Below are positions 17,216 to 23,805 of a DNA stretch of 58,949 nucleotides, piece after piece (position 1 is the first letter of the stretch; each line of letters opens with the position of its first letter). Source of the DNA: Escherichia phage ECO95 1-6-1. Position numbers and translations under genes: made by a program. The DNA is taken from the sequence record OR845257; one strand, written 5' to 3'. The notes under the pieces were generated by a model. That model was not told the origin of the DNA and ran no database searches. It worked only from the letters and a program-made list of their open reading frames with translations.

Positions 17216-18312
17216 GCGAACCAAAAGTCACTTACATCACCGACGACAAAAGCCTGAAAGACATCCTCGTCATGGCTATCGAGCAGGAAGGCGGCATATC
17301 CCCGAATCATATCCTGTGCGTGGCGCATAAATACCTTCTCGATAACTGCGGCGTTCCGGAAGGGAACATCCAGTCAGTCGATGAAGTCGAGGTGGACGGT
17401 GACGCGATGCCCCGGGAGATCCGCATTCACTGGACGCGGGTTAAACGTCCGTCCGCAGTTACGCCAACGGCCGCCGAAGTGACCGAGTGGGAGCGCGAGC
17501 AGTGCCAGCAGATCCTGAGCACCATCCTCGAAACGGTACGCGCCCGCGCTAAATACGCGAAGATTGCAGGCACCACCAGCCTCGAACTGGCCGGGAGCCT
17601 CGCCATGCAGGACATCCAGCGCCTGACCGGACAGATGACCAGCGATGGCCCGCTGACGCTGAAAGACTTCGAACCGCTGCGCCTCGCCAACATCACGCCG
17701 GGCGAACTGGCCGCACTACGCGAAGCGCTGGATACCAAGACCCGCAGTCTCGATACGGCTGAAAGCGCTGTCACCAGCCTGCAAATCCAGTTAGCCGAGG
17801 CCCACCGCCGACACGCCGACGATAACACCGAGCACGACAGGGAGATCACAAAGCTGCGCGCCACGGTTAAGTCACTACAAAATAACGTACGGTACACCCG
17901 ACAGTCCGCCTCGGTTCGCGCGGCATGGGAAGAACTGGCGGCCATCGACCTGACCACGGCCCGCATGGTGATCCTGTCCGGCCTCCGGGCGTACCCTGAC
18001 CATGCAGCGGAGTACCTCGATACTCCGCACTACCGCCTTGACGCGAATCTGGTGGAGAACCTGCCAGCACCGATCGTCACGTACATCCATGCGATGTGCG
18101 ATAACCTGCTGCTGTCACCGCCGCCAAAACCCGTCACGCAGCAGATGGTCAAGGACATGATAAACCGCATCCACGCGTCAATGAGCGCATCCACGTTCAG
18201 CGACCTGACCCGTAAATATTCAGGCGCACACCCGCTGTCCATGATGGCGGCCGACAAATACGAAGCCTTCTACATTGAGGCCGAAGACCTGCTGAACGGA
18301 GAAACTTTTTAA
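17212..18312 (+). CDS. hypothetical protein with predicted coiled-coil region
   Basis: 366-aa ORF, coupled overlaps. Confidence 0.55.
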   Translation: MSEPKVTYITDDKSLKDILVMAIEQEGGISPNHILCVAHKYLLDNCGVPEGNIQSVDEVEVDGDAMPREIRIHWTRVKRPSAVTPTAAEVTEWEREQCQQILSTILETVRARAKYAKIAGTTSLELAGSLAMQDIQRLTGQMTSDGPLTLKDFEPLRLANITPGELAALREALDTKTRSLDTAESAVTSLQIQLAEAHRRHADDNTEHDREITKLRATVKSLQNNVRYTRQSASVRAAWEELAAIDLTTARMVILSGLRAYPDHAAEYLDTPHYRLDANLVENLPAPIVTYIHAMCDNLLLSPPPKPVTQQMVKDMINRIHASMSASTFSDLTRKYSGAHPLSMMAADKYEAFYIEAEDLLNGETF

Positions 18313-19016
18313 TGAGTCAGTACGTTGATGCGCTGAACGCGCTGAAAGGCATGGACGAGCACGAACCTAAGATGATCGGCGACCAATGGCGTACGCCGGA
18401 ATGGCTGTTCCAAGCGATTAATAAGCTGTACGGGCCGATCGTGCTCGACCTGTTCACCGACGGCCAGAACGCCAAATGCCAGCGTTTCTTTACGGCCGAA
18501 GATAACGCACTGCGGCAGGATTGGGCGAAACGTCTGGCGGAAATTCAGGTGGAGAACCTCGGCCTTCCCGGCTTCGATGACCCATACCGGATTCAGGGTT
18601 GGGCCTACGCTAACCCGCCGTACAGTCAGAAGCGCGCCGGGAAAGAACACCTGACCGGGATGACCCACATCATGCGCAAGGCCGACGAGGAGCGGGCCAA
18701 AGGCGCAGGCACCATCTGGCTGACCAAGTCCGCGACGTCGGAAAGCTGGTGGCCGGACACCATCGCCACGCGCACCATTTTCATCAAAGGGCGCATCGGG
18801 TTCGAACCGCCAGTCTGGTTCCGGCCGAAGGAAGGCAGCAGCGAAATCACGTCGGCCGGGTTCGGCGCAGCCATCCACATCTTCGACCCGGCGACTGACC
18901 GCATCTTCCCCAACGAGTACATCGACCGTGAAACGCTACTGGAAATCGGCGCGCCACTGGCTAACGTATCTGCCAAGATCCGGAACCGCTGGATCAAGAT
19001 GTGGGACGAGATTTAA
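18312..19016 (+). CDS. DNA N6-adenine methyltransferase (phage Dam-like)
   Basis: NPPY catalytic motif (ANPPYS) and N-terminal WRTPEWLF segment typical of phage Dam-family enzymes. Confidence 0.7.
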   Translation: MSQYVDALNALKGMDEHEPKMIGDQWRTPEWLFQAINKLYGPIVLDLFTDGQNAKCQRFFTAEDNALRQDWAKRLAEIQVENLGLPGFDDPYRIQGWAYANPPYSQKRAGKEHLTGMTHIMRKADEERAKGAGTIWLTKSATSESWWPDTIATRTIFIKGRIGFEPPVWFRPKEGSSEITSAGFGAAIHIFDPATDRIFPNEYIDRETLLEIGAPLANVSAKIRNRWIKMWDEI

Positions 19017-19025
19017 AGAAAGCGT

Positions 19026-19054
19026 TTGACATACGCGACATGTGTAATTAATAT
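19026..19054 (+). promoter_or_regulatory. sigma70-type promoter TTGACA-tacgcgacatgtgtaat-TAATAT
   Basis: between the Dam gene stop (19016) and gene 19094. Confidence 0.6.
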
Positions 19055-19056
19055 TA

Positions 19057-19090
19057 CTCCCGAAGGTAAATCCACCAACGGGAGTTTTTT
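19057..19090 (+). terminator. hairpin + U-tract between promoter -10 and start codon; the stem contains the GGGAG Shine-Dalgarno
   Basis: CTCCCG-N16-CGGGAG followed by TTTTTT, ATG at 19094. Confidence 0.45.
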
Positions 19091-19093
19091 ATT

Positions 19094-21591: not shown

Positions 21592-21899
21592 ACTACATGC
21601 GCATGAAAGCCGACCGCACCCACGCCGTCATCGCAGAACTGGAAGCGAAGGGCTATCTGGTGGCCGTCAACGGTGTCCACGACGAGATCTGGTTTGACAT
21701 TATCCATCAGGTCGGGCCGCTGTCCGCAGCGGAACGCCAGTCCATTGAAGACCGACTTCTGGCCGCATACAGCGAAGACCTGAAAGAGTGGGCCGACCAC
21801 CTGCTCGGTTCGTGGCGCGAGGCGCACCCGGGCATCGTACGCATTTGGGACGGCGTGCCTGTCCGTAATTTCAAAGAAGAGGATAAATATAAAAAATGA
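21588..21899 (+). CDS. hypothetical protein
   Basis: ATGA-coupled internal start of ORF 21552-21899. Confidence 0.45.
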   Translation: MNYMRMKADRTHAVIAELEAKGYLVAVNGVHDEIWFDIIHQVGPLSAAERQSIEDRLLAAYSEDLKEWADHLLGSWREAHPGIVRIWDGVPVRNFKEEDKYKK

Positions 21900-22348
21900 A
21901 ACGCGGATCATTATTCCAGCAGGAGGCCCGCCGACAGGCTTCGGTCATCCGCCAACGCGCGAAGTGGGATCTGTACCCGTTCGTCCGGCATATCGTTAAG
22001 CGGCTCCTGCGCGGCGACGAAGAAGTCGTACGCTCGATGTACGGCAAAGGGCTGACCGACGTTATGGCATCGTTCTACGGTATTACCCGTTCGCCCGGGC
22101 CACGTCGTATCCACGTCCGGTCTGGCCGTCCGTACCCACTGCCATTCATCGTGCGCGAAGGCTCGCCGATACACATGGCCCCGGTATACCGCCAGTTGAC
22201 TATCGATCCGTGGCTTCCGCCGAGGGAAGCGCTGGCCGCGAAGGGCATCAAGATAGAAAACTCGGACGACATCATCCATCTGCTGTCCGTAAACGATTTT
22301 AAGTACGGGCTGCGGTTTACCATTAATCCTGAACTGGCCGAGGGCTGA
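21896..22348 (+). CDS. hypothetical protein
   Basis: 150-aa ORF, ATGA-coupled. Confidence 0.5.
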   Translation: MKRGSLFQQEARRQASVIRQRAKWDLYPFVRHIVKRLLRGDEEVVRSMYGKGLTDVMASFYGITRSPGPRRIHVRSGRPYPLPFIVREGSPIHMAPVYRQLTIDPWLPPREALAAKGIKIENSDDIIHLLSVNDFKYGLRFTINPELAEG

Positions 22349-22349
22349 C

Positions 22350-23066
22350 ATGGCTACGATGAAAGAGCGACACAAGATACCGCACTTCCAGTACAGCGGC
22401 GGGATCTGGTACTGCTACCGGGCGTTTGACGGCGGAGCGAAGTGTTACCCGGAATACTCGCCCACCAGCCACGCCGAGCTATGGTACAGCGACAAGGCGA
22501 TGGCCCGCATGGTGGAAGTGTACGGCTGGTGGAAGGCCAAAGACCCGAAGAATGCCCGCCTGACCGATGCAATGCTGCTGCGCTACGCCGGGGCCATTCG
22601 CTACGTGGAAGAAGGTAGCCGACGGAAGTGGGGCATGGTCATCAAAGACCTGCGCATCTTCGCGGAGAACGTCGGTAGCCGCTTCTCGCGGGAGTATTTC
22701 GCCCGGGCAAGGAAAGAGGACGTCAAGCGCGCGAAAACGATGCGTGGCAAGGAACAGGCCCGGCTGGTGGGAACGCTGATAGCCTCGGGGTACTGCCGGG
22801 TGTCGAATAACCATCGCATCGTCAGCCGCATCGATCGGCCGGACTGGCGAGAAGTGCTGGCGCTGGAACTTTGCCCGCAAGATCCGTATGGTGCCGGGAT
22901 TGACCGCACGTACGGCAGCGGCATGGCCGACTTCTACCGTCGCGGGAACAGCAAGGATAAACTGACCATCGAAGATGAAATGGTCTTCCGGCGCTTCCCG
23001 GGTTCCAGTGATGGCCCGAAGGACTTCATACCATTATGCGAGGACTTTGAGGGCGATGAAGTATGA
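22350..23066 (+). CDS. hypothetical protein; ends ...EGDEV
   Basis: 238-aa ORF. Confidence 0.55.
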   Translation: MATMKERHKIPHFQYSGGIWYCYRAFDGGAKCYPEYSPTSHAELWYSDKAMARMVEVYGWWKAKDPKNARLTDAMLLRYAGAIRYVEEGSRRKWGMVIKDLRIFAENVGSRFSREYFARARKEDVKRAKTMRGKEQARLVGTLIASGYCRVSNNHRIVSRIDRPDWREVLALELCPQDPYGAGIDRTYGSGMADFYRRGNSKDKLTIEDEMVFRRFPGSSDGPKDFIPLCEDFEGDEV

Positions 23067-23347
23067 TCGACGTTGAGGCTATAAAACGGAAATACCGTGC
23101 CAAGATAAAACCGGGCTGGCCGATTAAAGGCGACTCCGTGCATTTCACTGACCGATTCAACGGGCATAAATACTACGGAACCGTGCTCGAATGGGAACGC
23201 ACCGGGCCGCGTGAAGAGGATATTTTTTGGCGGGTGCGCCTGCCTAGCGGGGATATTATTTCCTGCGAGTTCAGCGAGATTAATCAGGTAGACCGATCTC
23301 CTGAAAATGAAAAATACGTGGACGAATATAACCGAGGCTTAATATGA
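23063..23347 (+). CDS. hypothetical protein
   Basis: 94-aa ORF, ATGA-coupled. Confidence 0.45.
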   Translation: MIDVEAIKRKYRAKIKPGWPIKGDSVHFTDRFNGHKYYGTVLEWERTGPREEDIFWRVRLPSGDIISCEFSEINQVDRSPENEKYVDEYNRGLI

Positions 23348-23805
23348 ACGTGAATATGTGTAACCCGGCGGCCAAGCCCGTCATGATCTATCTGGCCGGG
23401 CCGTACCGCCCGTACATCATCGGTTCGGGCTGCACCGTTCCGACGACGGTCAACATCCTGAAAGCCGAAGAGACGGCCGTGTCGGTTGTCGATCAACTCT
23501 ACGCCCACAAGATGTTCCCGGTTACGCCGCACCTGAACACGGCCAACTTCGAGTACAAGACCGAAGGCGAGATACCGGACGAATACTGGCTGGAATGCAC
23601 GATGGAATTGATGCGACGTTGTGACGCGGTTCTGCTGATTGGCGAAGATGCGATGCGCAGTTCAGGCACCCGCGCGGAGGTGGAAGAGGCGAAGCGGCTG
23701 AATATCCCGGTCTTCAATAACCTCGATCATCTGGTGTCCTCACTGCGGTACCACCAGACAATCGAGGGTGAACGTACGGTGGTTATCACCCACCCGACCG
23801 TTTAA
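23344..23805 (+). CDS. nucleoside 2-deoxyribosyltransferase-like (DUF4406-like) protein
   Basis: IYLAGPY N-terminal motif and W...CDAVLLIG...SSGTRAEVEEA pattern. Confidence 0.45.
   Translation: MNVNMCNPAAKPVMIYLAGPYRPYIIGSGCTVPTTVNILKAEETAVSVVDQLYAHKMFPVTPHLNTANFEYKTEGEIPDEYWLECTMELMRRCDAVLLIGEDAMRSSGTRAEVEEAKRLNIPVFNNLDHLVSSLRYHQTIEGERTVVITHPTV

Follow-up and report, generated by a model that had tools for sequence, protein, structure and literature searches.

Characterised phage adenine methyltransferases of the Dam family, namely those of coliphage T1, Haemophilus phage HP1 and the Stx phage VT-2/933W, methylate GATC. The nucleoside 2-deoxyribosyltransferases (NDTs; PF05014), known from Lactobacillus, Trypanosoma and Chroococcidiopsis, have a flavodoxin-like fold with a YxAG motif in the first strand and a catalytic glutamate; the 5'-OH of the deoxyribose is bound by an aspartate located six residues before this glutamate (Asp92 in L. 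leichmannii). In DNPH1 (Rcl), an N-glycosidase of deoxynucleoside monophosphates (dNMPs), the catalytic and phosphate-binding set consists of Tyr24, Arg30, His56, Ser98 and Glu104, and the CMP hydrolases of the MilB/BlsM type are other enzymes of this kind. An NDT-like protein is also the effector of the type II-A retron Sen2 of S. Typhimurium. Here we compare with these systems two genes of Escherichia phage ECO95 1-6-1 (sequence record OR845257, 58,949 nucleotides, hereafter the window): a Dam-family methyltransferase gene (dam, 18312-19016, plus strand) and a gene encoding a DUF7768 protein (23344-23805, plus strand). A first-pass annotation had proposed that the two form a DNA modification or anti-restriction pair.

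We favour, with moderate confidence, a reading in which the two do not form a hypermodification system but are conserved accessory genes, separate from each other, in the early/middle (replication-recombination) arm of chi-like phages, with Dam methylating the phage DNA and the DUF7768 protein acting as an N-glycosidase on the nucleotide pool. Dam would transfer methyl groups from S-adenosylmethionine (SAM) to the N6 of adenine, most probably in GATC, and would keep the rapidly replicating phage DNA fully methylated. This would protect the DNA from GATC-specific methylation-sensitive nucleases and from nicking by MutH, and Dam may also tune gene expression. The DUF7768 protein would be an N-glycosidase of the NDT superfamily using the conserved Glu112 as nucleophile. 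Since the 5'-phosphate is predicted to be bound, most probably via Arg22 and Ser106 as in DNPH1/Rcl, the enzyme would act on a free (deoxy)nucleoside monophosphate, which may carry a modification or a methyl group, and remove its base; exchanging bases in DNA would not be its function.

Both genes lie at the coordinates given by the first-pass annotation, with family signals well beyond chance, and its methyltransferase assignment was confirmed. The open reading frame (ORF) of 234 amino acids (aa) matched PF05869 (E=1.2e-29, 103.6 bits for a cut-off of 28.1) and, over its full length, the NCBIfam equivalog TIGR01712 of phage N-6-adenine-methyltransferases (135.2 bits for a cut-off of 97.05), as well as phrog_111 (E=1e-69) and the PADLOC models for type II/orphan methyltransferases (MTase_II, E=4e-54). 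The catalytic NPPY motif (motif IV) corresponds to residues 101-104 ('AYANPPYS'). In an alignment (A2) that takes in two homologues at only 28% and 35% identity, from unrelated viral contigs, both D24-x-W26-x-T28-P29 and N101-P-P-Y104-S were invariant. By these sequence characters, the ORF clearly encodes a phage Dam-family N6-adenine DNA methyltransferase, which is probably an orphan enzyme. It resembles the other members of the family in its NPPY motif, its N-terminal DxWxTP motif, its small size and its location in a replication/nin-type region, but differs from the shorter ones by two insertions visible in A2. Whereas in the phages carrying phrog_33262 the Dam domain is fused behind a PAPS-reductase/NinC domain, the Dam studied here is not fused. 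With tblastn, we detected the family in 501 phage records, the genes of Stx2-converting and other lambdoid phages being about 45% identical to this one. The identification is already known for chi-like phages, the chi gene having been named 'DNA methylase' (Hendrix et al., 2015; PMC4342425).

The target of this Dam, which we infer from its family, is most probably GATC, and the sequence statistics are consistent with this. The window contains 294 GATC sites, evenly spread and without clusters (observed/expected ratio of 0.83 with a Markov model and 1.32 from composition). We looked for GATC clusters as possible signs of regulation by Dam, for instance at a promoter or a pac-like element, and found at most five sites in any 200 bp, a density that does not reach significance; the same scan gave no GATC sites in the intergenic gaps of the block.

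The second protein (153 aa) carries the signatures 'MIYLAGPYRPY' and 'RRCDAVLLIG', as previously noticed. Its assignment to the NDT/DUF4406 proteins stood at the level of the superfamily but not at that of the named families. The only Pfam model passed was DUF7768 (PF24963; E=5e-8, 33.5 bits for a cut-off of 26), DUF4406 (PF14359) being below its cut-off (18.2 vs 22 bits) as was the NDT family itself (PF05014; 17.2 bits for a gathering threshold of 28.8). Most homologues match both DUF7768 and DUF4406. The protein also matched phrog_355 (E=3e-32), from which the label 'nucleoside 2-deoxyribosyltransferase' has been given to many relatives. A search of 5.8 billion proteins returned, besides the orthologues of chiviruses, about 20 distant homologues from phages or metagenomes, all with DUF7768, with or without DUF4406 and DUF1937, and an exhaustive profile search recovered 18,330 clusters at 50% identity (E<=1e-3), a family of more than 18,000 clusters without a characterised member. 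Direct sequence searches of Dam and of the DUF7768 protein against PDB chains returned nothing meaningful, only the profile and fold searches being informative. From the profile matches and the AlphaFold model (pLDDT 81), the protein is assigned to the NDT-like superfamily, in the DUF7768/DUF4406/DUF1937 group. Its true start may be Met14 (ATG at 23383, giving 140 aa), because the homologues begin 2-4 residues ahead of the YxAG motif and residues 1-7 of the model have pLDDT below 50.

The protein resembles the NDTs in its fold, in the YxAG motif of its first strand and in its catalytic glutamate: when aligned with the T. brucei NDT using HMMER, the invariant Glu112 falls on the catalytic Glu. 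However, the position six residues upstream is occupied by Ser106, which is invariant in alignment A1 and at least 90% conserved in alignment A3, whereas the T. brucei enzyme has the 5'-OH-binding Asp at this position ('PDCGTAFE'). As the protein also scores below the PF05014 threshold, it is probably not, judging from its residues, a bona fide nucleoside 2-deoxyribosyltransferase. A true enzyme of this type (EC 2.4.2.6) would salvage deoxynucleosides by base exchange and rebalance the precursors for replication. We consider this role improbable for the DUF7768 protein, given the almost invariant serine and the near-invariant arginine that follows the glycine loop of the family (Gly-x-x-Arg), as it does in DNPH1. 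In addition, when NDTs were assayed with dA, dG or diaminopurine deoxynucleoside (dZ), three of those tested were inactive in transglycosylation, among them both enzymes whose genomes of origin are predicted to have unmodified DNA (bioRxiv 10.1101/2025.10.22.683976).

The residue set of the protein fits a nucleotide N-glycosidase better than a nucleoside transferase, as far as the weak match to DNPH1 allows. Using hhalign, we could align Tyr16, Arg22, His63, Ser106 and Glu112 with Tyr24, Arg30, His56, Ser98 and Glu104 of human DNPH1; Y16, R22, S106 and E112 are each at least 90% conserved in the family. The protein thus has in common with DNPH1/Rcl the Tyr, the Gly-x-x-Arg, the His, the Ser at -6 and the Glu, but its overall sequence similarity to DNPH1/Rcl and the MilB/BlsM-type hydrolases is marginal and it lacks the active-site Asp80 of DNPH1. 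In comparison with DNPH1/Rcl, the DUF7768 family exhibits additional motifs, N37, P62-H63-x-N-T and R92-C93-D94. The PH and RRCD motifs are missing, in our alignment, from PA1492 of Pseudomonas aeruginosa, a structural-genomics protein of the DUF1937 group (PDB 1t1j). The common label 'nucleoside 2-deoxyribosyltransferase' is probably wrong in detail, since the residues match those of a nucleotide N-glycosidase. For this genome little changes otherwise, the records of its relatives already carrying the labels 'DNA adenine methylase' and 'nucleoside 2-deoxyribosyltransferase'.

The first-pass annotation had further suggested that the NDT-like protein takes part in base modification and in the evasion of restriction. 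In such a scenario, this protein, alone or with Dam, would introduce a modified base into the phage DNA or its precursors, allowing escape from host restriction. There are arguments for it: enzymes with the NDT fold exchange bases on deoxyribose, an NDT has been linked both statistically and biochemically to the diaminopurine (dZ) phages (bioRxiv 10.1101/2025.10.22.683976), DUF7768 genes cluster with DNA methyltransferases (see below), and in chi and the chivirus PST-H4 a NinC/PAPS-reductase-like gene with a PP-loop overlaps the DUF7768 gene. This gene (304 aa, PP-loop 'SFSGGQSS') and an ORF of 131 aa precede the DUF7768 gene immediately in many chiviruses, among them chi, PST-H4, ST-101 and FSL SP-030. 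However, the window retains the DUF7768 gene but lacks this NinC island (about 23063-23347; compare L002 8024-9353 and L091 6175-7504). We also rejected NinC/PAPS-reductase adjacency as a general trait: among the 63 dereplicated viral-contig loci described below, only the chi-like locus shows it, so that it is lineage-specific.

Other observations argue against base modification in this phage. In the ten ORFs scanned with Pfam between 15.9 and 23.8 kb, there was no domain for precursor synthesis or DNA transglycosylation, the only signals being those of Dam and DUF7768; two PHROG labels in the block, PAPS reductase on dam and ThyX on the ORF at 20717-21229, were without Pfam or NCBIfam support. 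Palindromes are strongly avoided in the window: of the 64 that are six bases long, 22 never occur, as against 3.5% of the non-palindromic hexamers. The missing palindromes include CCGCGG (38 expected), GCCGGC (30), GTCGAC (24) and CCATGG (21). CTAG and AGCT are depleted (ratios of 0.21 and 0.30, with 9 and 39 occurrences, respectively), whereas GATC, GAATTC (26 sites), CGGCCG and GCGCGC are not avoided. The absence of so many palindromes indicates that restriction still selects on the primary sequence. Moreover, the chivirus LuPh5 (PV806339), with 25 EcoRI sites (GAATTC), is restricted 10^5-10^6-fold by EcoRI, from which its authors concluded that there is no EcoRI-blocking base modification (PMC12671086). 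LuPh5 is 96.7% similar to PST-H4, its closest relative, in which we verified the presence of both genes. Finally, chi could be Sanger-sequenced from clones (Hendrix et al., PMC4342425). A survey of the literature for a methylome or nucleoside analysis of a chivirus returned none. Because of the lack of a partner domain in the block, the palindrome avoidance and the EcoRI sensitivity of a close relative, hypermodified virion DNA is unlikely in this phage, and we regard the modified-base scenario as a whole as very improbable. Instead of exotic DNA chemistry, the phage would rely on restriction-site avoidance together with adenine methylation of the ordinary kind.

The arrangement of the two genes also fails to support the idea of a pair. 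They are separated by 4.3 kb, with ten ORFs and two matches to the sigma-70 promoter consensus in between, both on the plus strand and situated in the two larger intergenic gaps. The first of these matches (19026-19055, TTGACA-17-TAATAT, 10/12) lies in the gap just 3' of dam and the second (21237-21266, TTGACA-18-TATATT, 11/12) in the gap preceding a sub-block (21310-23805) of which the DUF7768 gene is the final ORF. The scan of the block revealed no terminator-like site between the two genes, and co-transcription by read-through is therefore possible. The start codon of dam overlaps the TAA stop of the preceding ORF of 366 aa (TAATG), and that of the DUF7768 gene overlaps the stop of an ORF of 94 aa (ATGA). 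The rightward block ends, as initially proposed, with the DUF7768 gene, whose TAA (23803-23805) is followed at 23806, with zero intergenic bases, by the stop of the lysis region's first leftward gene. Since these stops abut (23803-23808) and no terminator-like site was found, convergent transcripts would collide. In related records, the leftward lysis region is annotated with Rz-like spanins, an endolysin and a gene in the position of a holin.

A different picture emerged when we considered DUF7768 genes in other phages. In the genomic contexts of six distant homologues, a DNA methyltransferase was present within 1.2 kb in three cases. We then fetched 80 IMG/VR loci, which were reduced to 63 by dereplication at 70% identity of the DUF7768 protein; candidate methyltransferases were found by motif and clustering and confirmed with Pfam. 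In this viral-contig set, 13 of the 25 methyltransferase genes located within 6 kb had their nearest edge at 500 bp or less from the DUF7768 gene (12 loci), for an expected fraction of 9.2% (binomial p=6e-8), an adjacency that we put at about ten-fold over expectation. The adjacent methyltransferases belong to four unrelated families: PF01555 (including helicase-methyltransferase fusions), PF00145 (C5), PF05869 (Dam) and PF05063 (MT-A70). They are found on either side of the DUF7768 gene, with coding regions often abutting or overlapping, and in two loci (L016 and L043) the adjacent gene is a Dam of PF05869, i.e., the same pair as in chi. The bacterial and archaeal genomes provided 20 more loci, which dereplication reduced to about ten new ones. 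In these, the 500 bp on either side of the DUF7768 gene contained no methyltransferase, and the nearest was a C5 methylase at 1.1 kb. The association, which therefore comes from the IMG/VR set, was still significant when all 73 dereplicated loci were combined (13/27 methyltransferase genes, 9.3% expected, p=2e-7). Other frequent immediate neighbours of DUF7768 genes were those for PolA, primase, VRR-NUC and dNMP kinase, so that the signal may be due in part to co-location in replication modules. A functional link between DUF7768 and DNA methylation is nevertheless possible.

Such a link could take the form of a methylation helper. The DUF7768 protein would either cleave the glycosidic bond of S-adenosylhomocysteine (SAH) or methylthioadenosine (MTA), relieving product inhibition of the phage methyltransferase, or destroy N6-methyl-dAMP (m6dAMP) and 5-methyl-dCMP (5mdCMP), preventing their random re-incorporation. 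The adjacency to methyltransferases of four families fits this proposal, SAM/SAH chemistry and methylated DNA being the only features common to all of them, and dNMP kinase is also a recurrent neighbour. Nevertheless, all 13 adjacent cases come from the viral contigs and none from the ten independent prophage loci, PolA, primase and VRR-NUC genes are often adjacent too, so that much of the signal could simply stem from a common location in the replication module, Pfs/MtnN is already present in the hosts, and the two genes are far apart in the window. The proposal seems to us unlikely.

Alternatively, the DUF7768 protein could be an anti-defence protein, countering an immunity triggered by phage methyltransferases or working through nucleotide chemistry, such as that of the type II-A retrons, or destroying nucleotide immune signals. 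In favour of this possibility, a phage Dcm triggers the retron Ec86, whose effector is NDT-like, and the same paper cites earlier work with Dam as a retron trigger (bioRxiv 10.1101/2023.08.16.553469). Anti-defence genes tend to cluster, methyltransferases are themselves anti-restriction genes, and the adjacency statistics fit as well. However, neither the DUF7768 protein nor three of its homologues matched any PADLOC defence model, those of the retron NDT effectors included; the strictly conserved, catalytic-looking residue set argues for an enzyme and not for a decoy; and the gene is located among replication genes and not in the variable early anti-defence region. We thus consider this explanation quite improbable.

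In a broader version of these ideas, DUF7768/DUF4406 would be a very large family of phage N-glycosidases coupled to phage methyltransferases of any class, either clearing SAH/MTA or methylated nucleotides or neutralising a methyltransferase-sensing immunity such as that of retrons with NDT-like effectors. The genes of chi would then be an unlinked instance of a widespread, undescribed two-gene module. We consider this hypothesis unlikely. Should the linkage turn out to be functional, phage DNA methylation would have an accessory step that has so far gone unnoticed, or the phages a means of offsetting what methylation costs them. The DUF7768-methyltransferase association at the family level and the DNPH1-like residue set are the two items that deserve to be followed up.

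Several points weigh against our preferred reading, i.e., two separate accessory genes with an N-glycosidase acting on the nucleotide pool. The tight DUF7768-methyltransferase linkage in other phages is not accounted for by a generic pool hydrolase. The hosts are already Dam+, leaving the benefit of a phage Dam in doubt. The hhalign match with DNPH1 is weak (probability 7%, E=0.005); the numbering of the DNPH1 sequence used agrees with the PDB mutants Y24F and D80A. The catalytic set is also incomplete, since Asp80 of DNPH1 aligns with Thr86 (Thr or Asp family-wide) and Glu88, two positions further on, is conserved instead. Finally, we found in the literature no functional paper or biochemical data on DUF4406, DUF7768 or DUF1937 proteins.

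Some of the loci examined in the neighbourhood analysis had peculiar features. One ORF of 409 aa (L054:3969-5198) appeared to be a fusion with a C-terminal DUF7768 domain and was rejected as an ORF-extension artefact in a high-GC locus, the real gene starting with 'MRLIYIAGPYR'. SNF2/helicase-methyltransferase fusions were observed among the DUF7768-adjacent methyltransferases (we examined L046:2519-5965, L053:6212-8032 and L085:3659-5998). That of L046 is interrupted by a HINT/intein-like segment, and in L053 the PF01555 methyltransferase contains a LAGLIDADG endonuclease insertion.

The ORFs flanking dam (17212-18312 and 19094-20068) have no Pfam domain and correspond to conserved PHROGs of unknown function in lytic chiviruses. 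The ORF of 170 aa at 20717-21229 (plus strand) is named 'thymidylate synthase complementing protein' in related records via phrog_9072; with an E-value limit of 0.01, neither Pfam nor NCBIfam returned a match for it, and from its sequence the ThyX label is probably an annotation artefact. Beyond the DUF7768 gene, an ORF at 23900-24181 (plus strand), called 'tail protein' (phrog_15395) in some related records, is antisense to the spanin-like genes and overlaps the leftward lysis genes; it is probably not a real gene.

The window (56.6% G+C) belongs to the chi-like phages (genus Chivirus, family Casjensviridae). The 6 kb between positions 18000 and 24000 are 100% identical to Salmonella phage vB_SenS_BPS1 (MW355474) and 92-99% identical to dozens of chi-like phages. 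At least 80% of this region is covered in 89 phage records, which hence contain both genes. The complement of the cohesive-end sequence of chi, 5'-GGTGCGCAGAGC (Hendrix et al., PMC4342425), occurs once, at 6701-6712; the window is therefore a complete Chivirus genome, circularly permuted and reverse-oriented, and not a fragment. We also noticed that several short records without annotation, entered as 'Staphylococcus phage SA 1298 Kay' (OR849991.1 (H86), OR845104.1, OR844602.1 and similar ones), contain DNA 100% identical to that of this chivirus, and that 'Listeria' and other 'Staphylococcus' entries of the phage collection likewise match the region. These Staphylococcus- and Listeria-named records are probably mislabelled or contaminated submissions.

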